Shown here in pieces: positions 1 through 64,000 of a stretch of DNA of 64,000 bases. The notes below the pieces were generated by a model. The model made no database searches. It saw only the letters and a program-made list of their open reading frames with translations, and had not been told where the DNA came from. The position numbers were made by a program, and so were the translations under genes. Source of the stretch: an uncultured Myxococcales bacterium (GTDB lineage: Bacteria; Myxococcota; UBA727; JABDBI01); contig CAYLLS010000001.1 of assembly GCA_964385015.1 (NCBI GenBank), positions 194,339-258,338 on the forward strand, given 5' to 3'. The stretch's first letter is position 1, and each line of letters opens with the position of its first letter.

Positions 1-3000
1 GTAATGCCTAATAATAATGGTTCTGATGTTGCAGTAGATAAATTTTGTTTTAATATTCTTGTATTTTCTTCATAAAAAATTTGTTTTTCTATTTGTTCAT
101 TTTCTAAAAAAGTTGTATCTCCAGATTTAATAATTTTTACTTTTTTTAACATTTGTCTTACAATGACTTCTACATGTTTATCGTTAATTTTTACTCCTTG
201 TAGTCTATATACTTCTTGAATTTCTTCTACCATATATTTTGCTAATGCTTTTTCTCCTAATATTCTTAAAATATCATGTGGATTCACTGAACCTTCCATA
301 AGAGCATCACCTGCTCTTACAAAATCTTCTTCTCTTACATTAATATGTTTCCCTTTTGGAATTAAGTATTCTCTTTTATTGTTTTTATCTGCATAAACAA
401 TGACTTTTCTTTTGCCTTTTGTATCTTTACCAAATATAATGCTACCATCAATTTCAGAAATAATAGCAATATCTTTGGGTTTTCTAGCTTCAAACAATTC
501 AATGACTCTTGGTAATCCTCCAGTGATATCTTTAGTTCTAGATGCTTCTCTATTTACTTTAGCTAAATTATCCCCAGGTGATATCATATCTCCTTCATTG
601 ACAATAATAATAGCACCTATAGGTAATATATAATTTGTTTTTTTATTATTTTTGTCTTTGATTATGATATTTGGTCTTATTGATGTATCTTTAGATTCTA
701 TTATTACTTTATGTGATAATCCAGTAATTTCATCTACTTGATTATTCATAGTAATCCCTTCTATAATATCTTCAAAATATACGCAGCCTTCTTTTTCACT
801 TAAAATATATGATGAAAATGGATCCCATTCTATTAACATCGTACCTGGTTGTATAAAATCACCTTCTTTAACTTTAATTATGGCTCCATATGAAACTGGA
901 TATACTTCACGTTCTCTACCGTTGTTATCCATGATTTTAATATTTCCTTGTCTGTTTATAGCTATAAAAATATTATCTTTTCTTTTAATGACTTCTAATT
1001 TATCATATATTACCGTACCTTTGCCTTTAGCTATATGACTAGATTTTTGAGCTGCACTTGATGCTATCCCTCCAACATGAAAAGTTCTCATTGTTAATTG
1101 AGTGCCAGGTTCACCTATGGATTGTGCTGCTATAACTCCTATTGCTTCACCTATGTTGACCATATGGCCACGTCCTAAATCACGTCCATAACATTTGGCA
1201 CAAATACCTCTTTGTGTTTGACATGTTAATACAGAACGTATCTTTACTTTAGATACTCCTGCACTTTCAATTTTATTGGTTATATCTTCATTGATCTCTT
1301 GATTAGCATCTATAATAAGGTGTCCTGTAATTAAATCATATACTTTTTCTAATGTGATTCGTCCTAAAATTCTATCTCCTATCCCTTCAATAATTTCATT
1401 GCCTTCTACAAGAGGTGAAATTTCAATTCCATCCAAAGTATTGCAATCTAGTTCTGTAATAATGGAATCTTGTGCTACATCCACTAAACGTCTAGTTAAA
1501 TATCCTGAATTTGCAGTTTTTAATGCTGTATCTGCTAGTCCTTTTCTGGCACCGTGTGTAGATATAAAATATTGTAAAGAAGTTAATCCTTCTCTAAAAT
1601 TAGCAGTAATCGGTGTTTCAATTATTTCTCCAGAAGGTTTAGCCATTAATCCTCTCATTCCTGCTAATTGTTTTAATTGTTGACTAGAACCGCGAGCGCC
1701 TGAATCAGCCATAATATATAATGAATTTAGAGATGAAGTAGTGAGTGTTTTGTTGTTATATATAATGGTTTCATGAGAAATTACATTCATCATTTCGTTT
1801 GCAATGTCTTCAGCTGCTTTTGACCAAATATCTATTACTTTATTATAACGTTCTCCATTAGTAATTAATCCTTCAATGTATTGATTTGTAATTTCTTCAA
1901 TTTCTGAATGACAATTATTTAATATTTTTTCCTTTTTAGGTGGAATAATCATATTATGCATTGCAATAGATATTCCTGAATTAGTAGCTTCTGTATATCC
2001 TAAAGTTCTAATTTTATCAGCTAATATGACAGTTTCTTTTTGTCCAGCTAATCTATAACAGTGGTTTATTAAAGATGCCAATTTTTGTTTATTCATAACT
2101 TGATTAATTAAATGAAATGAAATAATGTTTGGCATAATTTCGTATAATAATACTCGTCCTACTGTTGTGTCTACTATTTTATTATTAATTCTGCATTTTA
2201 TAGATGCGTGTAAATGAATTTGTTTTGCATCATATGCAACTCTAACTTCTTTTACATTAGCAAATATCATTCCTTCACCTTTTGATAAAGGATATGATCT
2301 AGTCATATAATAGCACCCTAGTACAATATCTTGCGTAGGAACTATTATTGGCTGGCCTGATGCTGGAGATAAAATGTTATTTGTACTCATCATTAATACT
2401 CTAGCTTCTATTTGCGCTTCTATTGATAATGGTATATGTACTGCCATTTGATCGCCATCAAAATCAGCATTAAATGCTGTGCATACAAGGGGATGTAATT
2501 GTATAGCTTTTCCTTCAACTAATATTGGTTCAAAAGCTTGTAATCCCAATCTATGAAGTGTTGGTGCTCTGTTTAGTAATATAGGATGTTCTTTTATTAC
2601 ATTATCTAGAATATCCCATACTTCTGATTTTTCTTGTTCTACCATGCGTTTTGCTGCTTTAATTGTTGTCACATAACCTTGATTTTCTAATTTACTATAA
2701 ATAAATGGTTTGAACAGTTCTAATGCCATTGATTTAGGTAATCCGCATTGATGTAATTTTAATTCCGGCCCTACTACAATTACAGATCTTCCAGAATAAT
2801 CTACACGTTTACCTAATAAGTTTTGTCTAAATCTTCCATATTTGCCTTTTAACATATCACTTAGGCTTTTTAATGGTCTTTTATTAGATCCAGTAATTAA
2901 TTTGCCTCGTCTACCATTATCAAATAATGCATCAACTGATTCTTGTAACATTCGTTTTTCATTGCGTATAATAATTTCAGGTGCATGTAATTCTTGTAGT

Positions 3001-3872
3001 CTTTTTAATCTGTTATTTCTATTAATTACTCTTCTATATAAATCATTAAGATCAGAAGTAGCAAAACGTCCTCCTTCTAATGGGACTAAAGGTCTTAAAT
3101 CAGGAGCAATAACAGGGATAACTTCTAGCATCATCCATTCTGGTTTATTGTCTGATCCTTTGAATGATTCAATAACTTTTATTCTTTTAATTAATTTTTT
3201 TTTTTTTATTTCAGATGTAGTTATTTTTAATTCTTGTCTTAGTTGTAATGCTAGTTCTTCTATGCCATTGCCAGATCCATTGGAACCTGCTTCTAATTGC
3301 CTTAACAGTTCTTTAATAGCTTCTGCACCCATATTGGCAATGATAGTATCATCACCATATTTATTTAATGCAATTTGATATTGTTCTTCACTTAATAATT
3401 TGCCTTGTGTATAAGGAGTGTTATGAGTTTCTAAAATTATATAACTTTCACAATATAAAACTTTTTCTAAATCTTTTTGTGTCATATCTAGTAAAGCACC
3501 TATGCGACTTGGTAGGCTTTTAAGAAACCAAATATGAGCAACCGGTGTAGCCAATAAGATATGTCCTAATCGTTCTCTTCTTACTTTTGATTTAATTACT
3601 TCTACTCCACATTTTTCACAAATAATGCCCCTATGTTTCATGCGTTTATATTTGCCACATAAACATTCATAATCTTTGATTGGACCAAATATTTTTGCAC
3701 AGAATAAACCATCTCTTTCTGGTTTAAATGTTCTATAATTAATAGTTTCAGGTTTTTTGACTTCTCCATAAGACCAGTCACGAATTTTTTCAGGACTTGC
3801 TAGTTTAATTTTTACACTATCAAAATTAAGCGGATTTTTTGGTTTTTCAAAAAAGTTAAAAATATCTTTCAT
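1..3872 (-). CDS. rpoC: DNA-directed RNA polymerase beta' subunit (3' end runs off the left edge of the window; absent from ORF track)
   Basis: Manual translation from ATG at 3872: [64 protein letters not shown]. Catalytic NADFDGDQM (codon start 2471) is in frame, and the frame is still open at position 1 (EPLLLGIT). Confidence 0.99.
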
Positions 3873-3902
3873 TTATTTTTTCCTAACACATTTTTTGTAT
3901 AA

Positions 3903-6900
3903 TTAATTAGTTGGTTTTTTCTTTTTATCTAATAATTGTATATCTAGTCCGAGACTTTGTAGTTCTTTGATTAAAACATTAAAAGATTCTGGAACTCCTG
4001 ATTCTAGTATATGTTCTCCTTTAATAATAGCTTCGTACATTCTATTTCTGCCAATTATATCATCAGATTTAATAGTTAAAAATTCTTGAAGTGCATACGC
4101 AGCTCCATATGCTTCTAAAGCCCATACTTCCATTTCACCTAATCTTTGTCCACCAAATTGTGCTTTCCCACCTAGAGGTTGTTGTGTGACTAATGAATAT
4201 GGACCAATTGATCTAGCATGAATTTTATTATCTACTAAATGGTGTAATTTTAACATGTACATAATTCCTACTGTTACTTCTTTGTCAAAAGCTTCACCAG
4301 TATGTCCATCAAATAAAATGGTTTGTGCCGATATATCTTGTCCACCTTGACTTAATAGTTGTTGAATTTCTCTTTCAGAAGCTCCATCAAATACTGGAGT
4401 TTTCATTGGTATCCCGGATTGTAAATTAAATATTAGATTTTTTGTTTTGGTTTCATTTAAATTATCAATAATATTATGTTCTTTTGGATTATTAAAAATA
4501 TTTTTTAATTGTGTTTTAATATGATTAATATTCGAATTGTTTTTTATAGCCAGATTTAATTGTTCACTTAATCCTTTAGCTGCCCATCCTAAATGTGATT
4601 CTAAAATTTGTCCAACATTCATTCTGCTTGGAACTCCTAGTGGATTAAGAATAATATCAACTGGAGTTCCATTTGGTAAATATGGCATATCTTCCTCTGG
4701 AAATATTTTAGATATTACGCCTTTATTACCATGTCTGCCAGCCATTTTATCACCAGCTTGTAGTTTTCTTTTTGTAGCTACACATACTTTAATAATTTTA
4801 ATAATTCCTGGTGGTAAATCATCTCCATTATTTAATTGTTTAATTTGTTTTACATATGTATTATTAATATTATTTATATTTGCTTGAGTGTTTTTAATAA
4901 ATGTTTGCATTTGTTTTTTAATATTTATATCGTTTATAGAAATGTTATTGTAATTATCGAAATCTATAGTGTCCATTATACGTTCATTTATTTTTTCACC
5001 ATTATGTGCAATTATGATATTATTGTTGATGAGATTTTCAGTTAATGTGTTATTTTTTAGTATTTTTTTTATATATTGTTTAGCTATATCTTTAATAATA
5101 CGTATTTTATCATTTTTGTTTTTTAAATATTGTGATATTTTATTTTTTTTATCATTAATAGATCTTTTATCTTGAGTGGTTCCCTTTCTTGTGAAAATTT
5201 TAACATTTATCACAGTTCCACCAGTGCCAGAAGGGACATGTAAACTAGTGTTTTTAATGTCTCCAGCTTTTTCTCCAAAAATAGCACGCAATAATTTTTC
5301 TTCAGGAGATAATTGTGTTTCTCCTTTTGGTGTGACTTTACCTACTAATATATTTCCTGGTACAACATTTGCTCCAATTTTTATTATACCAGAATCATCT
5401 AATTTTTGAAGCACATCTTCTGCAGTATTAGGAATATCATTAGTTATTTCTTCAGCGCCTAATTTTGTATCACGCGCTATGCATTCAAATTCTTCAATAT
5501 GAATTGATGTAAAAATGTCATTCTTTACTAGACGTTCACTAACAATAATAGAATCTTCAAAATTATATCCATGCCATGCCATAAATGCTACAGTAACATT
5601 TTGTCCTAGAGCTAATTCTCCATGATGAATTGCTGGACCATCAGCGATAATACTGTCTTGTTTTATATAATCATGCATAGTTACATTAGCAGTTTGATTA
5701 AAACATGTGTCTTGATTAGATCTTTGAAATTTAGTTAATTTATATACATCTATTATATTATGATCAGATGTATAATTCTTTGTATAATCTAATTGTATAA
5801 TAATTTTAGAAGAATCAACATAACATACGATTCCTGAATTTTTGGCAATTTGACATACTCCTGAATCTTTTCCTACAAATGCTTCTATACCAGTTCCTAC
5901 TATTGGAGCATCTGTTTTTAGTAATGGTACAGCCTGTCTTTGCATATTTGAACCCATTAATGCTCTATTGGCATCATTGTGTTCTAAAAATGGAATTAAT
6001 CCAGCAGCTATAGAGACTAATTGATTAGTTGATACTTCCATTAATGTAACATTTTCAGCTAATGTAAGTGTAGTTCCGTGTGATTGTCTTACTTGTATTA
6101 ATTTTTTTTTAAATTTATTTGTTTTATAGTTGATTGATTCAGTTGCTTGGGCTATTGTTTCTTTTTCTTCTTCTAATGCATTATAATATTTAATATGATT
6201 TGTGATTACTCCGTTGATAACATGTCTATATGGTGTTTCTATAAAACCATATTTATTAACTCTTGCAAAAATAGATAAAGAAGCTATTAAACCAATATTT
6301 TGTCCTTCTGGAGTTTCAATCGGACAAATTCTTCCGTAATGAGTTGGATGTACATCTCTTACTTCAAATCCAGCTCTTTCTCTTGTTAGTCCTCCAGGCC
6401 CTAACGCTGATAGTCTGCGTTTATGAGTTATTTCTGATAATGGATTAGTTTGATCCATAAATTGTGATAATTGTGATGATCCAAAAAATTCTTTAATGAC
6501 TGCTGCTATGGGTTTACTATTAATGATTTCATGTAATATAATAGTATCATCATTTTCTTGCATGCTAATTCTTTCTTTTATAATTTTTTCCATTCTAACT
6601 AAACCAATTCTATATTGGTTTTCTACTAGTTCACCAACTGATCTTACTCTTCTGTTTCCTAAATGATCTATATCATCAATCATTCCGTTGCCATTTTTTA
6701 ATTCTATTAAATATTTAATGACTTGTAATATATCATTTTTAGTTAATGTGCATTTTGTTAATGGTTCGTGAGTAGAAAATTTATGGTTTAATTTTAATCT
6801 ACCAACTTCTGATAAATCATATTTTGACATATTAAAAAATAGATTATTTAATAGTTGCTCTGCTATATCTATAGTAGGAGGATCTCCAGGTTTTAATTTT

Positions 6901-8021
6901 TTATAAATTTCAATAGCTGCTTCTTGAGAAGAAGTTGTTTTGTCAGCTAGCCATGTATTTCTGAAATATGGCCCTACATTTAAATTATCTATATATAAGA
7001 TTTTAATATTATTTATATTATGTTGTTTAAAATAATTTAAATGATTTTTTGATAATTTTTCATTGCATTGTACAATAATTTTATTGTTTTCTTTATTAAT
7101 AATATTTTCTGCAGAAATTAATTCTAGAACTTCTTTTTCATGTAACTTAATGGTTTTAATGTTGTTTTTTTTCATTATTTGAATGATTGAATTAGTAATT
7201 TTGCGATTTTTTTTAATTATAATATTTTTATTATCTGGATATAAAATATCATAGGTTGCTCTTTGCCCTAGTAATAAATTAAAATTTATAGATTTATCAA
7301 ATGAACCATCTTTATTTAATATTAATGTTTCTATTTGATAAAAATATTTTAATAATTCATCTATTGATAAATTTAATGCTTTTATTAACATTGTAGCAAG
7401 AAATTTCTTTTTTCTATCTATTCTACAATATATTAAATCTTTATGATCAAATTCAAAATCTATCCATGATCCTCTGTATGGAATAATTCTAGCATTATAT
7501 AAAACTTTCCCAGAAGAATGTGTTTTCCCTCTATCGTTATCAAAAAATACTCCTGGACTTCTATGTAATTGACTAACTACTACTCTTTCAGTGCCATTTA
7601 TCATAAAAGTTCCATAATTAGTCATTAAAGGGATATCTCCAAAATGAAGTTCTTGTTCTTTAGTATTGTCTTTTACATTTGTTCTGCTATTATTTATATA
7701 TATAGAACGAATAGTTATTTTTATAGGGGCTGCAAATGTTAATCCTCTGGTTAGACATTCTTCTAGATCATATTTTGGTTCAGTTAACTTATATGAAACA
7801 AATTCTAATGAAATTTTATTGTTGTAGTCTTTTATAGGGAATACTGATTTAAATGCTGCCTGTAGTCCTATATTTTTTCTTTTATGAGGATTAATATCTG
7901 TTTGTAAAAAATTTTTGTAACTTTGTTTTTGTATATCAATAAGATTTGGCATTGATAATTTACTTTTAATGCTAGAAAAACTTTTGCGGATAGCAAAACT
8001 TTGTCGAAACTCAGTTACCAT
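3903..8021 (-). CDS. rpoB: DNA-directed RNA polymerase beta subunit
   Basis: 1372 aa; GDKMAGRHGNKG, HPTHYGRICPIETPEG and GGQRLGEMEVWALEAYG motifs; directly upstream of rpoC. Confidence 0.99.
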   Translation of the reverse strand: MVTEFRQSFAIRKSFSSIKSKLSMPNLIDIQKQSYKNFLQTDINPHKRKNIGLQAAFKSVFPIKDYNNKISLEFVSYKLTEPKYDLEECLTRGLTFAAPIKITIRSIYINNSRTNVKDNTKEQELHFGDIPLMTNYGTFMINGTERVVVSQLHRSPGVFFDNDRGKTHSSGKVLYNARIIPYRGSWIDFEFDHKDLIYCRIDRKKKFLATMLIKALNLSIDELLKYFYQIETLILNKDGSFDKSINFNLLLGQRATYDILYPDNKNIIIKKNRKITNSIIQIMKKNNIKTIKLHEKEVLELISAENIINKENNKIIVQCNEKLSKNHLNYFKQHNINNIKILYIDNLNVGPYFRNTWLADKTTSSQEAAIEIYKKLKPGDPPTIDIAEQLLNNLFFNMSKYDLSEVGRLKLNHKFSTHEPLTKCTLTKNDILQVIKYLIELKNGNGMIDDIDHLGNRRVRSVGELVENQYRIGLVRMEKIIKERISMQENDDTIILHEIINSKPIAAVIKEFFGSSQLSQFMDQTNPLSEITHKRRLSALGPGGLTRERAGFEVRDVHPTHYGRICPIETPEGQNIGLIASLSIFARVNKYGFIETPYRHVINGVITNHIKYYNALEEEKETIAQATESINYKTNKFKKKLIQVRQSHGTTLTLAENVTLMEVSTNQLVSIAAGLIPFLEHNDANRALMGSNMQRQAVPLLKTDAPIVGTGIEAFVGKDSGVCQIAKNSGIVCYVDSSKIIIQLDYTKNYTSDHNIIDVYKLTKFQRSNQDTCFNQTANVTMHDYIKQDSIIADGPAIHHGELALGQNVTVAFMAWHGYNFEDSIIVSERLVKNDIFTSIHIEEFECIARDTKLGAEEITNDIPNTAEDVLQKLDDSGIIKIGANVVPGNILVGKVTPKGETQLSPEEKLLRAIFGEKAGDIKNTSLHVPSGTGGTVINVKIFTRKGTTQDKRSINDKKNKISQYLKNKNDKIRIIKDIAKQYIKKILKNNTLTENLINNNIIIAHNGEKINERIMDTIDFDNYNNISINDINIKKQMQTFIKNTQANINNINNTYVKQIKQLNNGDDLPPGIIKIIKVCVATKRKLQAGDKMAGRHGNKGVISKIFPEEDMPYLPNGTPVDIILNPLGVPSRMNVGQILESHLGWAAKGLSEQLNLAIKNNSNINHIKTQLKNIFNNPKEHNIIDNLNETKTKNLIFNLQSGIPMKTPVFDGASEREIQQLLSQGGQDISAQTILFDGHTGEAFDKEVTVGIMYMLKLHHLVDNKIHARSIGPYSLVTQQPLGGKAQFGGQRLGEMEVWALEAYGAAYALQEFLTIKSDDIIGRNRMYEAIIKGEHILESGVPESFNVLIKELQSLGLDIQLLDKKKKPTN

Positions 8022-8227: not shown

Positions 8228-9511
8228 CTATATATATATTTTATATTGATTTTTGTATATTTGTTTAATAATTAATGGAGCTTGATAAATTGATGTGCGA
8301 ATAATTTTAGTGTAATATTTATGTCTGATATTTATTTCAATATAGTGTTTAATTTTATGTCCTATTATTACTTGAATAGGATAACCTATTAAATTAGCAT
8401 TTTTAATTTTTATAGAGGCATTAATTAATCTATCATCAAATAGTACATCTATATGATATTTTAATAATGTTTGGTATAAGTGTTGACATTGATGGTAATA
8501 GTTATGTGATAATAGTAATATAATGACATGAAATGGCGTTACAGTAATTGGCCAAATTATGCCTTGATTATCATGATTTTGTTCAATTATAGCAGCTATT
8601 GTTCTGCTGACTCCTATTCCATAACAACCCATGTTAATGTATATTTGTTTCCCTTGTTTGTTTATTATGTTAGCATTCATAGCTTTAGAATATTTGTTGT
8701 TTAGAGAAAATATATGTCCTACTTCTATACTGCGTTTAATATTAACATGAGAATTGCATTTATTACATGTAGATAGATTATTAATTTTGTTATTATTTAA
8801 GTTATTTAATTCATAATTAATAATATATCCACATGAATTACATATAATAATTTTATCTTCTCCATATTTTGTTAATGCGTGAATCTCATGATTTTTGTTT
8901 CCACCTATATTACCTGCATGTGCTTCTATATTTAAGGTGTTTAATCCACATGTTTTAAATATTTTTTTATATATATGTTGCATTCTTCTATATATGATTT
9001 CTGTATTTTTTTGATCTTCGCAAAATGAATAAGCATCTTTCATCAGAAATTCTCTGCTTCTTATTAATCCTGATCTAGGTCTTATTTCATCTCTAAATTT
9101 AGTATTTATTTGATATAAAATTAATGGTAATTGTTTATAGCTATATATATGAGATGATATTAAATTAGTAATTATTTCTTCATGAGTAGGTCCAAGACAA
9201 AAATCATTATTATTTCTATCTTTTAGTTTAAACATTTCTTTTCCATATATATTCCAACGATTAGATGTGTCCCATAAATGTTTTGATTGTAATATTGGCA
9301 TGTGAATTTCTTGTGCGTATATTTTATTTAATTCAGTGCGAATAATATTATTAATATTGTTAATTATTTTTAATCCTAATGGTAAATATATATACATGCC
9401 GGATGATGCTTGTCTTATGATACCAGCTTTTAGCATTAAAGTATGAGATATGCTATAACTTTGAGATGGGTTTTCTTTTATTATTGGAATTAACATTTTA
9501 GAATAATACAT
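8228..9511 (-). CDS. proS: Proline--tRNA ligase, short form lacking most of the INS editing domain
   Basis: LGPTHEE, KFRDEIRPRSGLIRSREFLMKDAYSF, IEVGHIF, MGCYGIGVSR, QNHDNQGIIWP; only 427 aa. Confidence 0.96.
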   Translation of the reverse strand: MYYSKMLIPIIKENPSQSYSISHTLMLKAGIIRQASSGMYIYLPLGLKIINNINNIIRTELNKIYAQEIHMPILQSKHLWDTSNRWNIYGKEMFKLKDRNNNDFCLGPTHEEIITNLISSHIYSYKQLPLILYQINTKFRDEIRPRSGLIRSREFLMKDAYSFCEDQKNTEIIYRRMQHIYKKIFKTCGLNTLNIEAHAGNIGGNKNHEIHALTKYGEDKIIICNSCGYIINYELNNLNNNKINNLSTCNKCNSHVNIKRSIEVGHIFSLNNKYSKAMNANIINKQGKQIYINMGCYGIGVSRTIAAIIEQNHDNQGIIWPITVTPFHVIILLLSHNYYHQCQHLYQTLLKYHIDVLFDDRLINASIKIKNANLIGYPIQVIIGHKIKHYIEINIRHKYYTKIIRTSIYQAPLIIKQIYKNQYKIYI

Positions 9512-9684
9512 AAAAAATTTTACCTATATTATAGCTGTTATAAAATATTATATATCAATATATTCTTGAGTATACTATTATGAAGATGTATGCATAATGT
9601 GTATATGAAAATATATAAATTTATATATGATGTATATTTTTTATATTATATATTATATATATGCTATAAACGCTATATTCAAAG

Positions 9685-10809
9685 ATGAAAAATATGAATT
9701 TTTTTTATAAAATATTAGCTACTGATGGGGCTAGTCGCAGAGGCCGTATGTTTACGCCAAGAGGAATTATAGAAACACCAACATTTATGCCAGTTGGTAC
9801 ATGTGCTGCTGTAAAATCATTAATTACAGATGATTTAGAAACTTTAAATGTAGACATTATATTAAGTAATACATATCATTTGATGTTAAGGCCTGGAATG
9901 CAATATTTTAATAAAAATAATAAAATTCATAATTTTATGAAATGGACAAAACCTATTTTAACTGATTCTGGAGGATTTCAGGTATATTCTTTGTCTATAT
10001 TAAATAAAACAAATAATATGCATTCTTTAATAAAAATTTCTGAAAATGGTGTAAGATTTAAAAGTTTTATCAATGGTCATGATTTTAATGTTACTCCAGA
10101 AACAATAATTAATATGCAAAATAATATAGGATCTGATATATTAATGCCATTAGATTATTGTATTTCTTCTGATAGTAATAAGGTAGAAGTAAAATTGGCA
10201 GCAGAAAGAACTACTAGATGGTTAGATAGAAGTATTGCAAGTCATGAGAATAATAATGCAAAATTATTTGGTATTATTCATGGTGGAATATATGATGATT
10301 TAAGAATTATTCATGCAGAAGATATTTGTAGTCGTGATCTTTTTGGTTTTGCTATTGGAGGGTTATCTATTGGAGAAAAAAAAAAATATATGTGGAAGTT
10401 ATGTAATATTGTTGCTAACATTATTCCACATAATAAACCTCGTTATTTAATGGGTGTTGGTTCTCCAGAAGATTTACTAAAAGGTATATTTTATGGAATT
10501 GATATGTTTGATTGTGTTTTGCCTACACGCAATGCTAGAAATGGGACTCTATATACTTCTAAAGGAACCATTTACATGAAACATAGTGTTTATAAATATG
10601 ATAATAAAACATTAGATGATGTATGTACATGTTATGTGTGTTTAAATTTTTCACGTAGTTATTTACATCATTTATTTAAGGCTAATGAGATTATATTTTC
10701 TCGATTAGCATCATTTCATAATATTCATTATTATATGTCACTTGTTAAATTAGCTAGAAAAGCAATTGAAAACGGCATATTTTATTCTATGATGTTAAAT
10801 CTTTATTGA
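9685..10809 (+). CDS. tgt: tRNA-guanine(34) transglycosylase
   Basis: TPTFMPVGT, LTDSGGFQVYSL, KPRYLMGVG, DMFDCVLPTRNARNG, Zn site CTCYVC...H. Confidence 0.97.
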   Translation: MKNMNFFYKILATDGASRRGRMFTPRGIIETPTFMPVGTCAAVKSLITDDLETLNVDIILSNTYHLMLRPGMQYFNKNNKIHNFMKWTKPILTDSGGFQVYSLSILNKTNNMHSLIKISENGVRFKSFINGHDFNVTPETIINMQNNIGSDILMPLDYCISSDSNKVEVKLAAERTTRWLDRSIASHENNNAKLFGIIHGGIYDDLRIIHAEDICSRDLFGFAIGGLSIGEKKKYMWKLCNIVANIIPHNKPRYLMGVGSPEDLLKGIFYGIDMFDCVLPTRNARNGTLYTSKGTIYMKHSVYKYDNKTLDDVCTCYVCLNFSRSYLHHLFKANEIIFSRLASFHNIHYYMSLVKLARKAIENGIFYSMMLNLY

Positions 10810-10899
10810 TAATATTTCATTTATGTATTATAGATTATTTTTTTAATGATAATATATTTTTAATTTATAACTTATGTAAAGTTATATATGGAGTGTTTT

Positions 10900-11229: not shown

Positions 11230-11284
11230 ACATATCGTTTTTTAATATGTAAATATATGTTTATGTTAATGTAATGTTATTTAT

Positions 11285-48941: not shown

Positions 48942-48966
48942 TTTATATATTAAATATGATACTTGT

Positions 48967-50193: not shown

Positions 50194-50216
50194 TATATAT
50201 AATTAATATAAAAAAT

Positions 50217-54829: not shown

Positions 54830-54832
54830 ATA

Positions 54833-56017
54833 TTATAAAAACATTTTTGTATTTAATATATAGTATTTGTTTAAATTATTATCATAACGCATCATATGCA
54901 TAGAGTTTCTATATATATAAAATATGGTATTATTTTGATATAAATTGATATCAACTTTTTGTTCTAATATTCCGGAATTTTTATTTATTATGATAAGCTT
55001 TAATTGTTTTGTTATACAAAATATATGATGTTTATGATTTATACATACTATGCGTATTATATTATTAATGTTTTTTTTCCATATAAATTTGCCATTTTTA
55101 ATATTAATATTGATTAATGCGTTTGTTGTAGATATAAAAATAAAATTATCATTAATTAATATATTATTAATACGTTTAAGATAAATTTTCCATATTTTTA
55201 TTATGTTTTTAGATATCAGCAATAACCCTTTATTATAAGAAGAACTAATTATATTATAATTTTTATATTGTTGATGATTAAATATATCTGCAAATATTAT
55301 GTTTATATAACTAATATTTAATGTTTTAATTATTTGACCTGATTGTGCATTTATAAAATTAATATTACCATTTGCGTTTGGGCATGATAATATTTTCATA
55401 ATTTTATTATTTAAATAAATTTTACTTATAATTGGACCATAGGTTGGCATTAATATCATTTTAGAATGATTATATTTTTTTTTGAACCACAATATTTTTC
55501 CATGATGTATATGAATTGCATAAATTGTAGATAATTTAGATATTACATATAAAATATTATTATCATTATATATATGATTTAAAATGTTGGAATCTAATTT
55601 AATAATCCATTTAATACTACACGTATTAATATCAATATTTATTAAAAATTGATTTCTTATAGTTATAAGAATTTGTTTTTTAAATAAAATTGGAATATTT
55701 GTTATATTCTTAAATAATTTATATAATTTTAATAGACTATTATTGCAATGTTTAAACATATATATTGTTTTATTTTGTATAATAATTAATTTTTTATGTT
55801 TATAATATAATTTTAAATTAAAATTTTTATTATAATTTACTTTTTTTATATATAAATTAAAAATAAATTTTTTTTTATTTAAATCTAAATAAGATTTATT
55901 GTCTAAAACATATATGTATTTCATATTTAATATGCAAAACATTAATATTATATATAAAGTATACTTATAATTTATTTTAGATAAAAACATAATATCCAAT
56001 AAATCCTTATATATCAT
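54833..56017 (-). CDS. PQQ-like beta-propeller repeat protein (BamB-like), extremely eroded
   Basis: Repeated blade signatures IYAI...GKILW, INAQSGQI, INIKNGKFIW, INKNSG; nearly all N/K/I/Y elsewhere. Confidence 0.6.
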   Translation of the reverse strand: MIYKDLLDIMFLSKINYKYTLYIILMFCILNMKYIYVLDNKSYLDLNKKKFIFNLYIKKVNYNKNFNLKLYYKHKKLIIIQNKTIYMFKHCNNSLLKLYKLFKNITNIPILFKKQILITIRNQFLINIDINTCSIKWIIKLDSNILNHIYNDNNILYVISKLSTIYAIHIHHGKILWFKKKYNHSKMILMPTYGPIISKIYLNNKIMKILSCPNANGNINFINAQSGQIIKTLNISYINIIFADIFNHQQYKNYNIISSSYNKGLLLISKNIIKIWKIYLKRINNILINDNFIFISTTNALININIKNGKFIWKKNINNIIRIVCINHKHHIFCITKQLKLIIINKNSGILEQKVDINLYQNNTIFYIYRNSMHMMRYDNNLNKYYILNTKMFL

Positions 56018-56023
56018 ATAATC

Positions 56024-56586
56024 TTAAATAATTATATATTTACGTATTATATGTTGAATTAATAAAATAGTATTATTTATATTATTATTTTTAATAACAT
56101 AATAATATTTGTTATATCCTATTAATATTTCTTTTTGTGCTGCTAAAATTCTTTCGTTAATTTTTACATGAGATTCAGTATTCCTGTATAATAATCTTTT
56201 TTTTAATTCATTAAAAGATGGAGGCAAAATTAAAATTAATAAAGTATTTTCATTTTTTTTTTAATTTGTATTCCACCATCTATACTAATATCAAATATAA
56301 TATGATATCCTTTATTTAACATTTTATTAACCCAAATTATATCTGATCCATATTTATATTGATACATAATAGACCATTCTAAAAATCTTTTCCCTATTAT
56401 CATATGATTAAAGTTATTGTCTGAAATAAAATAATAATCTCTCTTATCAATTTCTTTTTTACGATGTCTTCTAGTTGTATAACTAATGCTTTGTATAATA
56501 TTATTATACATATTTGTAATTAATCTAGATAAAGTTGATTTGCCTACGCCACTTGGGCCACTTAATATGATAGGTATGCCTTTCAT
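56024..56586 (-). CDS. gmk: Guanylate kinase split by a one-base frameshift in an A10 tract (56253-56262)
   Basis: 5' part GPSGVGKST, SYTTR, DYYF, FLEW, YGS; 3' part LILPPSFNELKKRL..R.TE...RI..A..E; adding one A joins them as QIKKKNENTLLILILPPS. Confidence 0.92.
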
Positions 56587-56653: not shown

Positions 56654-57073
56654 TTAAAATATTTCATTATCTGTAAAAAAAAAATTGATTTCTTTTTTAG
56701 CATTGTGAACTGAATCTGATCCATGAATAATATTTTTTATTAAAGATGAAGCATAAGTTCTTCGTATAGTACCATATGAAGCATCAATATAATTTGTTGA
56801 TCCTATTAATTCTCTATGCTTTTGAATTACATTTTTACTTTGCAATACTAAAATTAAAATAGGCATGGAAGATATAAAATTGATTAATTCCAGAAAAAAT
56901 TTTTTTTCCTTATGCATAGAATAAAATAATTTTGCTTCTGAAGTGCTTAAATGTTTCATTTTAGCTGCAACAATAGAAAAATTATTTATTTCAAAACAAC
57001 TTATTATGTTACCAATAATTTTTTTTTTTATACCATCAGGTTTAATAATAGATAATGTTCTCTCGTTATTCAT
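56654..57073 (-). CDS. ndk: Nucleoside-diphosphate kinase
   Basis: ERTLSIIKPDG, FY..H..K.FF, GTIR, IHGSDS. Confidence 0.96.
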   Translation of the reverse strand: MNNERTLSIIKPDGIKKKIIGNIISCFEINNFSIVAAKMKHLSTSEAKLFYSMHKEKKFFLELINFISSMPILILVLQSKNVIQKHRELIGSTNYIDASYGTIRRTYASSLIKNIIHGSDSVHNAKKEINFFFTDNEIF

Positions 57074-57086
57074 AGAATATAATTCC

Positions 57087-58526
57087 TTATAAATTATTAA
57101 TATATTTTAATGCTACTTCAATTCTATAACAACATCTATATTTCCCTAAAATTAAAATCACAGGAAATAAAGGAGGAGTTGTTGTTGTCCCAGTTAAAAT
57201 TAGCCGCATAGTCATAAATAATGTTTTTTTTGATAGTTTATATATTTGACAACAACTATTAAAACAATATTTTATATTATACATATTAAATTCTGACCAT
57301 GTTTGCATTGTTTCTAATATTTGATTTAATATATTAATAGTATCATTTAAATTATTATTAATTAAACATAATTTATAGTTAATATTTAAATTATCAACAA
57401 AAAAATAATTAGTATAATTAATAAAATCTTCTATAGTATGCATTCGATATTTAACTAATGGTATAATTTGATTTAAATATGATTGTGATAAAATATTATT
57501 AAGCAAATATTTTGTAATTTGTTTATTAGTATATATGTTATGAATATATTGCTTATTTAACCACAATAACTTTTTAATATCAAATATTGGACCTCCTAAA
57601 GCAATTTTTTTTAATGAAAAATTATTAACAAAATATTTGAGATTAAAAATTTGTTTATTATCAATAAATGAAAAAGCCATTAAGCCTAAAAAATTTACCA
57701 TTACTTCTGGTAATATGCCTAAATGTTTATAATAAAAAATAGATGTTGGATTAATACTTTTTGATACTTTACTTCTATCATGATTTCGCAATAAAGGCAA
57801 ATGACAAAAATATGGTATTTTAAAATTCAAAAATTTATATAACAATACATGTTTAGGTGTAGAGCTAATCCATTCTTCTCCTCTAATAACATGTGTAATA
57901 TTCATTAAGTGATCATCTATTACATTAGCTAAATGATATGTTGGGAATCCATCATTTTTTAATAGAATTTGATCATCTAATTTATTATTATAAATACTTA
58001 TAGGACCTCTTAATATATCATAAAATATAGTTTTACCTATATTTGGTACTTTTAAACGAATCACTCCTAATGCACCATTAGAAATTTCATTATAAACATC
58101 AATATGAGATCTATATCTACAATATCCATCATATTTACTTGGTTGATTTGATTTTTGTTGTTTTAATTTTAATTTAGCTAATCTATTATATGAGCAACTA
58201 CACCAGTAAGCTTTATTTAATTTAATTAAATAATGTGCATATTTTTGATAAATATGTATTCTATTACTTTGTTGATATAACTTTGAATTGATATTTACGC
58301 CATCATCCCATGTCAACCCTAACCATATTAACGATTTTATAATGTTATATATACTATTATGCACTATATTCTTTTGATTGGTATCCTCTATGCGAAATAC
58401 AAATTTGCCATTATATTTCTTGGCAAAAGCATAATTGATAAGAGCTACATATCCAGTTCCTACATGAGGATCTCCTGTGGGAGATGGACCTATTCGTACT
58501 TTCACATCTTTATATTGATTTATCAT
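57087..58526 (-). CDS. gltX: Glutamate--tRNA ligase
   Basis: RIGPSPTGDPHVG, RIEDT, PTYHLANVIDDH, HVIRGEEW, KVSKS. Confidence 0.96.
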   Translation of the reverse strand: MINQYKDVKVRIGPSPTGDPHVGTGYVALINYAFAKKYNGKFVFRIEDTNQKNIVHNSIYNIIKSLIWLGLTWDDGVNINSKLYQQSNRIHIYQKYAHYLIKLNKAYWCSCSYNRLAKLKLKQQKSNQPSKYDGYCRYRSHIDVYNEISNGALGVIRLKVPNIGKTIFYDILRGPISIYNNKLDDQILLKNDGFPTYHLANVIDDHLMNITHVIRGEEWISSTPKHVLLYKFLNFKIPYFCHLPLLRNHDRSKVSKSINPTSIFYYKHLGILPEVMVNFLGLMAFSFIDNKQIFNLKYFVNNFSLKKIALGGPIFDIKKLLWLNKQYIHNIYTNKQITKYLLNNILSQSYLNQIIPLVKYRMHTIEDFINYTNYFFVDNLNINYKLCLINNNLNDTINILNQILETMQTWSEFNMYNIKYCFNSCCQIYKLSKKTLFMTMRLILTGTTTTPPLFPVILILGKYRCCYRIEVALKYINNL

Positions 58527-58552
58527 TCATCTTTTTTCTTTTTTAATTTATA

Positions 58553-59437
58553 TTATGTACCATATGTTAATAAAACTTTTTTTGTAATTAATCCAATATC
58601 AGATGGAGTATCCACTAATTTAATACCTGCATCTTTAAAGGCTAATTTTTTGCATAATGCAGTCCCTTCGCCCTTTGCAATAATAGCACCTGCATGGCCC
58701 ATTCTCTTATTAGAAGGCGCAGTCTCTCCAGCTATAAAACCTATTACTGGTTTTTTCATGTTGTCTTTTATCCATAAAGCAGCATTTTCTTCGGCATTTC
58801 CTCCAATTTCTCCTATTATTACCACTGCTTTAGTATCATCATCATTATTAAATTTTTCTAATATATCTATAAAGTTTGTTCCAAGAATAGCATCACCACC
58901 TATACCAACACATGTAGATTGACCTATATTTAAATTAGTTAATTGATGAACTGCTTCGTAAGTTAATGTCCCGGATCTAGAAACAACACCTACATTGCCT
59001 TTTTTATGTATATATCCTGGCATAATACCAATTTTACATTCATTAGGTGTAATAATTCCAGGGCAATTAGGACCAATTAATCTTGTATTACTAGATTTTA
59101 GTAATTTTATAACTTTTATCATATCTATAGTTGGAATCCCTTCAGTAATGCACACTATTAATTCTAATTTAGCTTCAATGCTTTCTATAATTGCATCTGC
59201 TGCTAGTGCAGCTGGTACATATATAATAGAAACATTAGCATTAGTTTCATCAATAGCATCACGTACTGAATTAAAAATAGGAATTTGATTATTAAATAAT
59301 TGTTTTTCTTTACCTGGTGTAATGCCACCTACAATATTAGTTTTATATTGCAACATTTGTAATGTATGAAAAGATCCAGATAATCCAGTAATCCCTTGTA
59401 CTAATACTCTAGTTGAAGAATCAATTAAAATACTCAT
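58553..59437 (-). CDS. sucD: Succinate--CoA ligase alpha subunit
   Basis: [41 protein letters not shown] (phospho-His). Confidence 0.98.
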
Positions 59438-60597
59438 TATATCCTCGATGCTTTAACTGCTTTTAATGCTCCATCAAGCATATTATCTGCAGTAATAATA
59501 TTTAATTTAGAATTATTTAACATTTGTTTTGCTATTTTGCTATTTGTTCCCTCTAGTCTTACAATAAGTGGAATATTTATATTTAAATCTTTACTAGCCG
59601 AAATAACTCCATTTGCAATAGTGTCACATTTAGCTATGCCACCAAAAACATTAATAAATATAACTTTTACATTCTTATCTTGCATAATTAATTTTAAAGC
59701 CTGAGTAACTTTTAAAATAGTAGTGCTCCCTCCAACATCTAAAAAATTAGCTGGATTACCACCAACATATTTTATAATATCCATTGTAGCCATAGCTAAT
59801 CCAGCACCATTTACCATACATCCGATATTGCCATTTAAAGCAACATAGCTTATATCATATTTATGAGCTAATACTTCTTTATTATCATATTGTTTTGGAT
59901 CATACATATTTAAAATATTTGATTGTCTAAATAAAGCATTATCATCAATATTAAATTTAGCATCCAAAGCAATAAGTTCATTATTTTTTGTTACAATTAA
60001 AGGATTAATTTCAGCTAAACTTAAATCTAATACTATAAACATATTATATAAATTATAACATAATTCATGCATTGATTTTGAAATATTTTTATGTAATTTT
60101 AATTTTGAAAGAAAAAATCTTATTTGAAATGGCATTAATCCAATATTTGGATTAATCCATTGTTTTAATAGTTTATGTGGTTTTTCAATAGCAGTTTTTT
60201 CTATGTCTACTCCACCTTCATCTGACATAATAAGACAAATTTTTTGTTGTTCTCTATCTATAGTTAATCCAATATAAAACTCTCTAATCACATCACATAA
60301 CTCTTCTATCATAATCATGTTAACTAATTGACCATCAGAATTAGTTTGATGTGTAACTAATTTTTTATTCAATATTTGTTGATAATAGTTGATTACATCT
60401 TGTTTATTATGAGCTATTTTAATTCCTCCTACTTTACCACGTCCACCTGCATAAATTTGAGCTTTTAATATACATGGATATTTTATTTGTTTAGCAGCTT
60501 TTAACATTTCTTCTAAATTAAAACAAATATGATGATGTAAAATGTTTATTTTATGCTGTTTCAATATTTGTTTCGCTTGAAATTCATGTATTTTCAT
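59437..60597 (-). CDS. sucC: Succinate--CoA ligase beta subunit
   Basis: [52 protein letters not shown]. Confidence 0.98.
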
Positions 60598-60717: not shown

Positions 60718-61026
60718 ATGAAATTAAGAATTACAAGAGATAATATACGTTTTAGATTAAATCATTTTGATAAAATAATGTTAAAACGAGATAAATATAT
60801 ACAAGAACATATATTAATTGGATATAAAAAATATCACACATTTTATTTTACGTTAAAAATTAATATCAAATTTAATATAATGTTTAATGAAAACAACATT
60901 TATGTAACTATACCACATCATATGATTAAAAATCTCTATACATATGATTTTTATAGTATTAAAAAAAAAATCAAGTTTATAAAACAAAGATTTTTGATCA
61001 TTATAGAAAATGATTTTATAAAATAA
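60718..61026 (+). CDS. Conserved hypothetical protein
   Basis: MKLRI..DNIRFRL N-terminus and IIEND(F) C-terminus resemble a widespread uncharacterised family (MKxRIxxNSxRxRL...EKDF). Confidence 0.6.
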   Translation: MKLRITRDNIRFRLNHFDKIMLKRDKYIQEHILIGYKKYHTFYFTLKINIKFNIMFNENNIYVTIPHHMIKNLYTYDFYSIKKKIKFIKQRFLIIIENDFIK

Positions 61027-61041
61027 TAGTATTTTTCAAAA

Positions 61042-61926
61042 TTATCTTATATATTTTTTTACATATTCATAAATTTCTTTAGATTTATATGAGCTTCTCA
61101 TAAAAAAATGTGCAAATATACCTTGTAATCCTATTTTTTGTCCAAATTTAATCCAATTATGATATTGATTTAACATGATATAATTTTGTATTGGCCAATT
61201 TTTTAAACTTGGACGTAAATATTGTCCAATAATAACAATATTAACTCCATTTTTTTTTAAATAATATATACTTTCTTTTACTTCATCATTTGATTCTCCT
61301 AAGCCAACCATAAGACTACTTTTAATAAGTATATTTTTTTTTTTAGATGCTTTTTTTAATAATATACACGTATGTTCTAAATTAGATTGTGGACGTAATT
61401 TCTGAAATAAACTAAAAACTGTTTCTATATTATGACTTAATACATGAGGATTAGCTTGTAATATATAATCTATAAAATATAAATCACCATTAAAATCTGG
61501 GATCAAGATTTCTATAATAACATTAGGAAAAAATTTTTTAATTGCATTAATACATTTAATAAATTGATTAGCTCCATAATCTAATAAATCATCACGATTT
61601 ACACTTGTAATAACTATATAATTTAAATTCATATTTTTAATAGCATTTAAAACTTGAATATATTCATACTTATAAATAATATTTGCTTTTTTTGTTTGAA
61701 TAGAGCAAAAATTACATGTTCTAGTGCATTTGTCTCCTAAAATCATTAATGTTGCAGTATTTTTAGAAAAACATTCACCAATATTTATACAATGAGCATC
61801 TTCGCACACAGTATTTAAACTTAATTTTCGCAAAATATTTAATGTTTTATATTTTTTTTGTATGGTATATATATTTTTTTTTAAATATTTTGGCAATCTT
61901 AATTTATTATTTAATGTTTTATACAT
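61042..61926 (-). CDS. lipA: Lipoyl synthase
   Basis: TVCEDAHCINIGEC, CTRTCNFC, ITSVNRDDL, HNIETV, KSSLMVGLGE, GQYLRP, RSSY. Confidence 0.97.
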   Translation of the reverse strand: MYKTLNNKLRLPKYLKKNIYTIQKKYKTLNILRKLSLNTVCEDAHCINIGECFSKNTATLMILGDKCTRTCNFCSIQTKKANIIYKYEYIQVLNAIKNMNLNYIVITSVNRDDLLDYGANQFIKCINAIKKFFPNVIIEILIPDFNGDLYFIDYILQANPHVLSHNIETVFSLFQKLRPQSNLEHTCILLKKASKKKNILIKSSLMVGLGESNDEVKESIYYLKKNGVNIVIIGQYLRPSLKNWPIQNYIMLNQYHNWIKFGQKIGLQGIFAHFFMRSSYKSKEIYEYVKKYIR

Positions 61927-61929
61927 AAT

Positions 61930-63336
61930 TTATTTTTTATTAATAATTTTAAGTTCATTATTTCTAATGGATTGAGCAGAATATGGAAACCATCCTACAA
62001 AAAATTTAGATAATAGTATACATATAACAAATAATATCATTAAAATTAATGCTGGCAATAAAATTATATTATTAGCTACTAAAGTTGGCAAAAATGCTAC
62101 GATAATTAATTCTATAAAAGAAATGCCTATATATGCTATGCCAAAATCTTCAACAATTCTTGCTCTCATATTAGGATCAACAACTCTTAACAGAACAATA
62201 GATGTAGCAATAGATCCTGTATTCCATCCATACATCATTAATGATCTTTCAAACCAAAAGTTTTTATATATTTTTCTTCCTATAAACCACATTAAACAAA
62301 TTGTTACCATAGTGCCAAATCCAAATAAAAGTATTAATGGAAATATAAATTTTTCAATTACATTTAAAGTAATAGATGCTATTCCGAAAGCTATTAAATA
62401 ATCAGTAATTAAAGAACCTATTCTATTAATAAAATGTTGATCAATATATTCACCAAATTGCAATATATTAAAAATTTGTTGGAATATTCCACCTAAAATT
62501 AAAGCAATGCAAAATCCTGGTATATGATATGCATTCGGAAATATATTTTTTAATAAATCACTAATATAAAAAGCAAATACAGCAATTCCTAAAACTATAG
62601 CAAAATGCCAAGTAATAGAATCTAATGCAATAGGATTAACAGTTTCTTTACCTACAAATATTCTTTCTTTTTCAGGGATAAACCCAGTTTTAATGCTTTC
62701 AGGCATTTTATGCATAGATTTAACTATTCTAGACCATCCTAAGCGAATCCCTATATTAATAATAAACATGCCACCTAAAACACCTATTAATACTCCTATA
62801 GTAGCAGACGTATATCCTATTGATAAAGCTCCTATAAATCCATTATCTTCTAAAATTCCTGCAATAGCTGCTGCAGTGCCATGACCACCTATAAAACCAG
62901 CAGGTAATAATAATGCAAAAGCACAATGTAAATCTGGAAAAATAGGAGTTAAAATAAATAAACCAAAAAGAAGAGCAAAACCATATTGTCCAACTAATGA
63001 TGCTAAATTAAAAAATAATGTATCACCTACATCAGTTAAAATTTTATTAAAAGATATCTTATTTTTTCTTTTTCCTAAAAACAAAGTAGCAAAAAAAAAT
63101 ACAACTAAGACTGATGGATACTTCACTATATTTTGAATCTCATGAGGATTACCACTAAATGGCAAAATATCTAGAAATTGTGAACCACATATTAAAGCCA
63201 ATATGCCTGCAATAACTGCACTTGGCATATATGTATATTGTAAAAATTTTATGCGTGAACGTAATAATTGCGATATAATTATAAGAATTGATATAATCCC
63301 AAAATCTACAAGAACATCTCTATAGAGAGAGCTCAC
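61930..63336 (-). CDS. gltS: Sodium/glutamate symporter (GltS/ESS family)
   Basis: P.AVIAG, GFIGGHGTAAA, SATIGV..G..GG, G..TG...T...LLRVVDP; AAAGGAGG RBS before GTG start. Confidence 0.85.
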   Translation of the reverse strand: MSSLYRDVLVDFGIISILIIISQLLRSRIKFLQYTYMPSAVIAGILALICGSQFLDILPFSGNPHEIQNIVKYPSVLVVFFFATLFLGKRKNKISFNKILTDVGDTLFFNLASLVGQYGFALLFGLFILTPIFPDLHCAFALLLPAGFIGGHGTAAAIAGILEDNGFIGALSIGYTSATIGVLIGVLGGMFIINIGIRLGWSRIVKSMHKMPESIKTGFIPEKERIFVGKETVNPIALDSITWHFAIVLGIAVFAFYISDLLKNIFPNAYHIPGFCIALILGGIFQQIFNILQFGEYIDQHFINRIGSLITDYLIAFGIASITLNVIEKFIFPLILLFGFGTMVTICLMWFIGRKIYKNFWFERSLMMYGWNTGSIATSIVLLRVVDPNMRARIVEDFGIAYIGISFIELIIVAFLPTLVANNIILLPALILMILFVICILLSKFFVGWFPYSAQSIRNNELKIINKK

Positions 63337-63551
63337 AATGCCTCCTTTTATAATAATATATTAATATGTTTTATGTGCAAAAATTTATGAATAAATAAAT
63401 AATAAAAAGTACATTATAATAAAAATAATTTATATAAAACAAATTAATCTGATAACATTATTTCATATAATTTAAATTTTTGCAAATTTAATCTTTTGAT
63501 GTGATGCGTGTAACATTATTGTTATGAAATAATCTTATCTATAAAATGAGA

Positions 63552-64000
63552 TTATAAAACACGCATTTGAGGGAATAAAATAACATCTTTAATAGAATTA
63601 CTATTTGTTAATAACATAACTAAACGATCAATTCCAATTCCTTCACCAACAACTGGAGGCATGCCATATTCTAATGCTTCTATAAAATTATTATCTATAT
63701 CATGTTTTATATTATTATTGTTTATTTGTTTTTGAAAACGTTTTTTTTGATCTATAGGATCAGTTAATTCAGAAAATGCATTAGCTAATTCAAAACCTCC
63801 ACAAATAAGTTCAAATCTTTCAGCTAAAGATGGATCATTGTTTTTTCTTCTTGCTAATGGGCTTGTATTTATAGAAAAATCTGTAATAAAAGTTGGTTGA
63901 ATTAATGTATTTTCTATTTGATCTTCAAATACAGCATATAGTAAATGTAAGGCAATACTTCTTCTTTTAATTATATCATTAGTTAATATTTTATCAATTT
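63552..64000 (-). CDS. lysS: Lysine--tRNA ligase class II, 3' part (5' end beyond the right edge; absent from ORF track)
   Basis: Manual translation: QPTFITDF...SPLARR...ERFEL...[16 protein letters not shown]...[39 protein letters not shown]. Confidence 0.96.

Follow-up and report, generated by a model that had tools for sequence, protein, structure and literature searches.

A 0.53-Mb, 24% GC chromosome from a strongly reduced, probably host-dependent lineage of Myxococcota

Myxobacteria are the textbook case of bacteria with large, GC-rich genomes and complex social behavior. Reduced, AT-rich symbionts are already known. The Chlamydiae possess Na+-NQR and a V-type ATPase and lack FtsZ, both Chlamydiae and Rickettsiales keep peptidoglycan genes, and the genome of Candidatus Azoamicus ciliaticola comprises about 0.29 Mb. 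This ciliate symbiont and the Azoamicaceae are described as having a tiny genome with a respiratory chain, an ATP synthase and TLC-type carriers, and are proposed to supply ATP to the host (PMC7969357, PMC11549363). Myxococcota have one published precedent, the agent of epizootic bovine abortion, Pajaroellobacter abortibovis, which its description presents as an uncultured intracellular myxobacterium with a 1.82 Mb genome, 2250 predicted genes and AT drift, and for which the authors argue obligate host association (PMC5295582). A 2026 paper still cites Pajaroellobacter as the reduced myxobacterial endosymbiont (PMC13190605). Here we describe a 64-kb window, by which we mean the whole stretch of DNA that was analysed (C1:194339-258338, on the larger contig of source genome G000), and the genome that contains it, which is far smaller than that of Pajaroellobacter. 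We conclude with good confidence that this genome belongs to an extremely reduced member of the Myxococcota that is unable to live without a host, and that the window is a typical stretch of its chromosome.

The genome resembles Pajaroellobacter, as the latter is described, in being reduced and AT-drifted within the Myxococcota, but it comprises ~0.53 Mb and ~470 open reading frames (ORFs) instead of 1.82 Mb and 2250 genes, and it occurs in marine sequencing runs instead of a tick/mammal host. Azoamicus is reported as a gammaproteobacterium with anaerobic denitrification, whereas this genome is myxobacterial and encodes an aerobic chain; any export of ATP by its bearer would be conjecture. With Chlamydiae and Rickettsiales it shares TLC-family carriers, the loss of biosynthesis and a probable host-dependent life style, but it is placed in Myxococcota and none of 12 division and cell wall (dcw) genes for peptidoglycan and division was found in it. 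A search of the full-text literature returned neither a myxobacterial symbiont genome below 1 Mb nor a TLC-bearing family of myxobacteria; supplements and subscription journals lie beyond its coverage, and such a paper may exist.

An earlier note on the window, made from the sequence alone, had proposed a Myxococcota/deltaproteobacteria origin, in part because RpoC and RpoB looked myxobacterial. GTDB 232, the collection taxonomy, assigns the genome to one phylum with Corallococcus exercitus (NZ_CP102577.1) and C. coralloides (NZ_CP172866.1), and its phylum is thus Myxococcota. The resemblance of the two polymerase subunits holds up, as identity falls stepwise from family to order to phylum to outgroups. 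It amounts to 74% (RpoC) and 59-62% (RpoB) for family kin, 71-73% and 59-60% for order kin, 65-70% and 55-60% for other Myxococcota, 64% and 54% for a Desulfovibrionales metagenome-assembled genome (MAG), and 58% and 51% for E. coli.

Trees were built from concatenated RpoB and RpoC, with E. coli and the Desulfovibrionales MAG as the only outgroups. FastTree (LG+CAT, 41 rows x 2731 columns) recovers both the family clade and the order clade with support of 100. A site-heterogeneous posterior mean site frequency (PMSF) tree (LG+C20+F+G4, 28 rows x 911 columns), which used every third column and dropped 13 rows, among them that of the 312-kb family member G005, supports the order clade at 100 and the family at 89 by the Shimodaira-Hasegawa-like approximate likelihood ratio test (SH-aLRT). 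After Dayhoff-6 recoding (GTRX+FO+G4, 1000 ultrafast bootstraps (UFBoot), 41 x 2731), support is 99 for the family, 99 for the order, and 98 and 99 for the next two sister families. Under the site-heterogeneous and recoded models that the earlier note had suggested, the genome therefore nests in its order with support of 99-100. An approximately unbiased (AU) test rejects a grouping of the genome with the two outgroups (log-likelihood difference 77.65, p 2.9e-7). Over the RpoB and RpoC rows, FYMINK (the share of the residues F, Y, M, I, N and K) is 0.363 for this genome vs 0.236-0.278 for the others. Compositional attraction cannot explain the placement, since no other row has a strong AT bias and the relatives of the genome are GC-rich. 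Taxonomy, identity, trees and the AU test together bear out the proposed origin.

A competing view would assign the genome to an established clade of AT-rich symbionts (Rickettsiales, Legionellales, Chlamydiae or Dependentiae) and attribute its myxobacterial look to motifs or tree artefacts. The combination of Na+-NQR, a V-type ATPase (B subunit: NF002555, 684.7 bits), TLC carriers and no FtsZ recalls the Chlamydiae as they are generally known, and the trees include no rows from the four clades. The list of named relatives is also biased: it derives from the best 80 of 236 confirmed matches of a locus search in which only one of six patterns, the motif WIDFEFDH, matched other genomes, and this motif, which drove the named matches, is absent from the nearest kin checked. 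We rejected WIDFEFDH as a shared derived character, as it occurs in 95 of 159 RpoB sequences and is absent from six same-family or same-order rows among the 12 rows checked. Against membership of a symbiont clade stand the collection taxonomy, RpoC identity of 74% to family kin vs 58% to E. coli, and the order clade at 100 (PMSF) with family and order at 99 (Dayhoff-6). AT bias would draw the genome away from its GC-rich relatives and not towards them. Moreover, 27 of 29 kin loci preserve the gltX-ndk adjacency, and the V-type ATPase is shared by 3 of 40 kin genomes. We consider membership of such a clade exceedingly improbable.

The assembly comprises two contigs with a total of 561,909 b. 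C1 has 529,272 b at 24.1% GC and C2 has 32,637 b at 28.6% GC. The end of C1 matches positions 1-940 of the 16S model and its start matches positions 1359-1533, followed by tRNA-Ile, tRNA-Ala, 23S and 5S. As these ends are consecutive parts of a single 16S gene, we infer a circular chromosome of ~0.53 Mb from which only ~418 nt of the 16S gene are absent. C1 carries 35 tRNAs and a transfer-messenger RNA (tmRNA), and its ~470 ORFs of at least 70 amino acids cover 91% of the contig. A genome of this size and 24% GC is neither large nor endowed with full biosynthetic capacity, which would have spoken against the earlier note; biosynthesis and envelope genes were not found. The strong erosion that the note had suspected in a myxobacterial lineage is thus confirmed on a single contig.

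C2 has a 55-b terminal overlap and was assembled as a circle. Its products include a large terminase, a portal protein, a Sak4-like annealing protein and a weak match to a major head protein, and 40 of the 41 ORFs lack a homologue on C1. We interpret it as a phage and not a piece of the chromosome. The C2 tmRNA is 79% identical to the chromosomal tmRNA in the window, with a different tag, and its tRNA-Met is 91% identical to the chromosomal one. Together with the gene content, these similarities point to this bacterium or a close relative as the host of the phage. The portal protein matched only three phage records, at 22-23% identity, one of which is a phage of the protist symbiont Megaira.

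The small size could in principle be an artefact, if the metagenome bin were incomplete or chimeric and came from a larger genome. Marker completeness is 87.66%, the 16S gene is split between the two contig ends, and the bin holds a second, unrelated contig, all of which would suit this explanation. The bulk of the assembly is however one 529-kb contig of even composition whose ends are consecutive parts of one rRNA operon, with 35 tRNAs and contamination of 0.05%. The second contig has the terminal overlap of a phage, and two other family genomes are also below 1 Mb. A binning artefact is very improbable.

The window shares the composition of the chromosome. Its GC content averages 0.235 and ranges from 0.203 to 0.296 over sixteen 4-kb bins, and GC at third codon positions (GC3) of its ORFs is 0.115. 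Over 52 ORFs (19,781 residues), Ile makes up 13.7%, Asn 9.2% and Lys 9.1%, summing to 32.0%. These ORFs and two RNA genes (tmRNA and tRNA-Leu) occupy 93.7% of the window, with intergenic spacers of median 29 nt and at most 327 nt. Profile scans with Pfam and NCBIfam assign the genes to housekeeping and transport. The extreme AT bias, N/K/I-rich proteins, minimal spacers and housekeeping-plus-transporter gene set noticed earlier are all there. The claim that mobile DNA is missing holds for the window, where no repeats above 48 nt were detected (all repeats found are AT-rich, 67-87%, low-complexity chance matches) and no transposase or integrase family matched in the 51 ORFs scanned with profiles; it does not extend to the assembly, of which the second contig is the phage.

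Many functions expected of a free-living cell were not detected. FtsZ (TIGR00065), MurA (TIGR01072), LpxC (PF03331) and the type II/IV secretion (type IV pilus) ATPase (PF00437) had no match in the genome, while 13, 14, 4 and 13 of the 14 control genomes matched, respectively. In a tblastn search with 76 E. coli K-12 proteins, 53 had no match. These include all 12 dcw genes, lpxA-D, fabZ and cdsA, hisG-I (8), trpA-E (5), thrA-C, ilvIH and dapB for amino acids, and carAB, dxr, ispH, ispU, nadC and ribF for carbamoyl-phosphate, isoprenoids, NAD and FAD. Matches to leuA-D are weak and fall on apparent paralogues from the tricarboxylic acid (TCA) cycle. NuoD was not found in the genome, and E. coli sucA/aceE queries returned no E1 subunit, though lipA and an E2 subunit are present. 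With less than 1 Mb, AT bias, dense coding, few repeats, and the loss of biosynthesis, envelope and division genes, the genome has the features of a reduced symbiont. Typical myxobacterial traits are missing from it, as seen in its 0.53 Mb, 24% GC and lack of PF00437 matches. Their loss is expected in a reduced lineage and has no bearing on descent.

The retained functions center on information processing and aerobic energy metabolism. The genome encodes translation, transcription, Sec/Tat and SUF systems, dnaK/J, secA and dnaE, with a weak bamA match. Central metabolism is represented by GAPDH, citrate synthase, sdhAB, the E2 subunit (sucB), sucCD, fumC, an acyl-CoA dehydrogenase and an amino-acid dehydrogenase. 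The respiratory chain includes Na+-NQR (nqrA, nqrB) and an aa3 oxidase (coxA/B/C). There are three divergent paralogues of heme-copper oxidase subunit I (PF00115, 200, 160 and 42 bits), a CoxB-like protein and three SCO1/SenC proteins; the oxidase paralogue loci lie at C1:451900-459300 and 166200-169500 (L162, L163), adjoined by nqrA/B and fumC. An F-type ATPase, of which the beta subunit was found, is accompanied by V-type ATPase subunits A and B at C1:175584-178740. This type of B subunit occurs in 4 of the 41 genomes searched (G000, G004, G019 and G027), a patchy distribution for which we rejected the V-type ATPase as a family trait.

The window encodes a divergent TLC-family carrier that the earlier note had read as an ATP/ADP translocase. 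The protein matches PF03219 over profile positions 8-488 of 491 with 92.4 bits (cut-off 21), but it fails the canonical model TIGR00769 (87.1 vs 387.2 bits). Its identity is 37.5% to a 453-aa paralogue with a low score (G003:C33) and 22-25% to the canonical family copies. The family assignment thus stands and the canonical function does not: the gene encodes a predicted TLC-family carrier that is orthologous to the G003 paralogue and not to the canonical translocases. A genome-wide PF03219 search returned this gene as the best match (87.7 bits, full-length) and a second one at C1:319267-320469 with ~66.5-66.9 bits (TIGR00769, 44.4 bits), an orthologue of a family-wide protein of ~415 aa. No canonical ATP/ADP translocase was found by PF03219 in the nearly closed genome. 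Its relatives differ in this respect. Full-length canonical copies scoring 490-641 bits in PF03219 occur in 16 of 20 family genomes, often in multiple copies, and G010 has two fragments at contig ends. Kin from the order and phylum have only 24-96-bit matches inside frames of ~1000 aa, and none of the 14 control genomes matched. The canonical translocase is, to our knowledge, almost confined to bacteria and organelles inside eukaryotic cells. Its presence in 16 of 20 genomes makes the family as a whole look like a clade of energy parasites, whereas G000, from which it is apparently absent, bears less resemblance to a classical energy parasite than the other members do.

The gene losses and the retained functions, taken with the transporters of the window, suggest that the cell lacks a wall, imports nucleosides, dicarboxylates and ammonium as well as glutamine or glutamate, and oxidises these compounds aerobically with sodium-coupled energetics. 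We picture the bacterium living within a marine eukaryotic cell or firmly bound to one. It may take up nucleosides through NupC, nucleotides or cofactors through the two divergent TLC carriers, dicarboxylates through the DASS symporter and ammonium through Amt, and would probably also import glutamate or glutamine. The glutaminase could convert glutamine to glutamate, and host carbon may be oxidised via the TCA cycle and the sodium-based aerobic chain so that the cell makes its own ATP. The environment is indicated by run labels. The window DNA is present in two DNA runs with the label marine metagenome, which may be its source. A fraction of 0.47-0.53 of the sampled words also occurs in two small RNA runs with the label seawater metagenome, and the four runs belong to a single study.

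The same genes may be read as those of an obligate epibiont, a predator-parasite of bacteria or a cell-surface ectosymbiont within the Myxococcota. Myxococcota are predators, the labels name marine or seawater metagenomes with no eukaryotic host seen, and the genome retains a respiratory chain and ATP synthases of its own, with no canonical translocase found in it. Weighing against this, 16 of 20 family members have canonical TLC copies of 490-641 bits compared with 0 of 14 control genomes. Genes for the wall, lipid A and FtsZ were not found, which fits an osmotically protected intracellular niche, and the glutaminase bears ankyrin repeats. Life on the surface of other cells is an unlikely alternative, to which we assign a small share of probability. 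A more elaborate proposal regards G000 as the end point of an undescribed, family-wide radiation of host-dependent marine Myxococcota with its own phage, which would have given up the canonical translocase while retaining the complete sodium-based aerobic chain, two ATPases, glutaminase, GlnII, Amt and the two divergent TLC carriers. It would then be no energy parasite but act, organelle-like, as a respiratory or nitrogen-handling partner serving a protist host, a myxobacterial counterpart of Candidatus Azoamicus. We offer this as speculation and consider it distinctly doubtful.

Several points count against a host-dependent member of the Myxococcota, which we nevertheless favor. The absences rest on single profiles and E. 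coli queries run against AT-biased, fast-evolving genes at 87.66% completeness, and divergent or non-orthologous replacements could escape the queries used. With a full aerobic chain and two ATPases retained, an energy dependence on the host is not obvious. The runs are labelled as metagenomes and not by a host, and no host came into view through sequence, microscopy or an 18S link. As for descent, the tree rows include no Rickettsiales, Legionellales, Chlamydiae or Dependentiae, the group used in the AU test was chosen after tree inspection, and the Desulfovibrionales row falls among Myxococcota rows in the Dayhoff-6 tree, whose deep backbone is not resolved.

The family of the genome (f1, comprising G001-G020 and G000) spans 0.3-3.4 Mb, and the other families of the order span 2.8-8.3 Mb, with a GC content of 47-66% over rpoBC in the four of them that were sampled. 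GC content of rpoBC is 62-66% in families f4, f5 and f22, 50% in f6, 47% in f2 and 37-48% in the f1 kin. The rpoBC bins of the window are at 27-30%, making G000 the most AT-biased family member seen. It resembles its own family in small genome size, gltX-ndk order and the two divergent TLC paralogues, and it departs from it in rpoBC GC (27-30% vs 37-48%), FYMINK (0.363 vs 0.24-0.28) and the canonical translocase, which was not found. Two further family genomes are below 1 Mb, G005 (312 kb, one contig) and G010 (~0.5 Mb). G010 groups with the 1.8-Mb genomes G008 and G006 and not with G000, so at least two of the genomes below 1 Mb reflect separate reductions. G005 falls beside E. coli in FastTree, with a long-branch warning, and within the family after recoding, its exact place being unstable. 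No TLC or Ndk match was found in G005. The open frame that spans its rpoB comprises 1684 aa, and its branch is very long.

The lineage has shrunk ~ten- to twenty-fold, to 0.53 Mb and 24% GC. Its relatives are graded, from 5-8 Mb at ~65% GC, through 1-3 Mb at ~37-48% GC, to 0.3-0.56 Mb. They provide a rare within-order series for studying the passage from predator to host-bound symbiont. The series would record the gain and subsequent loss of an ATP/ADP translocase, and it displays the distortion of proteins by AT bias (rpoBC FYMINK 36% vs 25%). It would also extend obligate symbiosis in Myxococcota well past the single published case of 1.82 Mb.

The features of the window are listed in Table 1. 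The DUF1844 protein and the arrangement of sucCD near ndk, both of which had been cited as fitting a myxobacterial origin, are present, the latter as sucC-sucD-gltX-ndk. A proposed Grx4-HesB-rhodanese fusion is clear in its glutaredoxin (59.3 bits) and rhodanese (60.3 bits) domains by Pfam. Its HesB/IscA part is weak: PF01521 aligns over profile positions 2-101 of 110 (E 0.0012), but its 19.5 bits fall short of the cut-off, 26.3.

Table 1. Predicted genes and RNA features of the 64-kb window; positions count from the first letter of the window
Feature	Position	Strand	Evidence
rpoC, 5' 1290 codons, gene continues past window start; full length 1377 aa	3..3872	-	TIGR02386 1666.7 bits
rpoB, 1372 aa, used in trees together with rpoC	3903..8021	-	TIGR02013 1787.2 bits
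proS (-); tgt, yajC, secD, secF (+)	8228..14340	mixed	NCBIfam
tmRNA, tag AENMFMKRTNNNSYALGAMA	14401..14791	+	ARAGORN; Rfam RF00023 88.3 bits
Glutaminase with C-terminal ankyrin repeats	15007-16518	+	PF04960 362.7 bits; Ank_2 63.4 bits
Type II glutamine synthetase GlnII	16543-17586	+	NF041605 428.4 bits, below cut-off 500
Ammonium transporter Amt	17605-18828	+	TIGR00836 437.4 bits
DASS family sodium-coupled anion (di/tricarboxylate) symporter	18874..20292	-	TIGR00785 330.7 bits
ligA, pth	20493..23282	+	Profile scan
Nucleoside uptake/salvage: deoC, pyrimidine-nucleoside phosphorylase, NupC-type transporter, purine-nucleoside phosphorylase	23279..27644	+	Profile scan
M16 peptidase, 884 aa (+); rsmI (-); ABC-2 exporter ATPase and permease (+)	27657..32998	mixed	Profile scan
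rplS; SUF Fe-S operon sufT, sufU, sufS, sufD, sufC, sufB, Rrf2-type suf regulator	33000..39636	-	Profile scan
Fusion: Grx4 monothiol glutaredoxin (residues 13-108), HesB/IscA-like middle (below threshold), rhodanese (residues 218-306)	39734..40681	+	TIGR00365 126.3 bits; PF00462; PF00581
tRNA-Leu (TAG)	40709..40791	+	ARAGORN; Rfam
miaB (+); tatC (-); truA (-); DUF1844 protein 44250-44621 (-)	40911..44621	mixed	PF08899 84.4 bits for DUF1844
3-oxoacid CoA-transferase subunits A, B (scoA, scoB)	44933..46362	+	TIGR02429, TIGR02428
argS (-); 5-formyl-tetrahydrofolate cyclo-ligase (+); tyrS (+); signal peptidase I (lepB) (-)	46430..51461	mixed	Profile scan
Divergent TLC-family carrier, 483 aa	51654..53105	+	PF03219 92.4 bits; TIGR00769 87.1 bits, cut-off 387
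metG (+); BamB-like beta-propeller protein (-)	53174..56017	mixed	Profile scan
gmk, frameshifted at A10 run (56253-56262)	56027..56586	-	PF00625 positions 4-112/182; three-frame translation
ndk, gltX, sucD, sucC	56654..60597	-	Profile scan; synteny
DUF7009 protein (+); lipA (-); 468-aa ORF 61930-63336 (-)	60718..63336	mixed	Profile scan
Class II (D/K/N) aminoacyl-tRNA synthetase, C-terminal part, continues past window end	63552..63998	-	PF00152 120.2 bits

The glutaminase with ankyrin repeats directly precedes GlnII and Amt, a trio that is unusual to retain in a 0.53-Mb genome. The layout of a glutaminase followed by ankyrin repeats is familiar from eukaryotic glutaminases. In gmk, the N-terminal 116 codons lie in one frame and the C-terminal part (ILPPSFNELKKRL...) in another. 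Frameshifts at A-tracts in other AT-rich symbionts are rescued by transcriptional slippage. The 468-aa ORF has no Pfam or NCBIfam match, with none in Pfam even at E 1, and only its language-model features suggest a likeness to Na+/glutamate symporters (Atlas score 0.98, PF03616 clusters in 27 of 30 matches).

The window has a positive GC skew except at 1-8 kb and 56-64 kb, where it is negative, and the skew tracks the main coding strand. Two observations concern database records of RpoB. A 4.6-Mb genome of the same phylum (G100) has an rpoB match at C6:42323-46447 that contains two in-frame TGA codons. The record BNCN01000010.1 (L023), titled Comamonas sp. KCTC 72670, encodes an RpoB that is 58.3% identical to that of G000, equal to the value for Corallococcus carmarthensis (L018) and next to 58.4% for L016 and L017. 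It carries the Myxococcia motif and looks mislabelled or contaminated.

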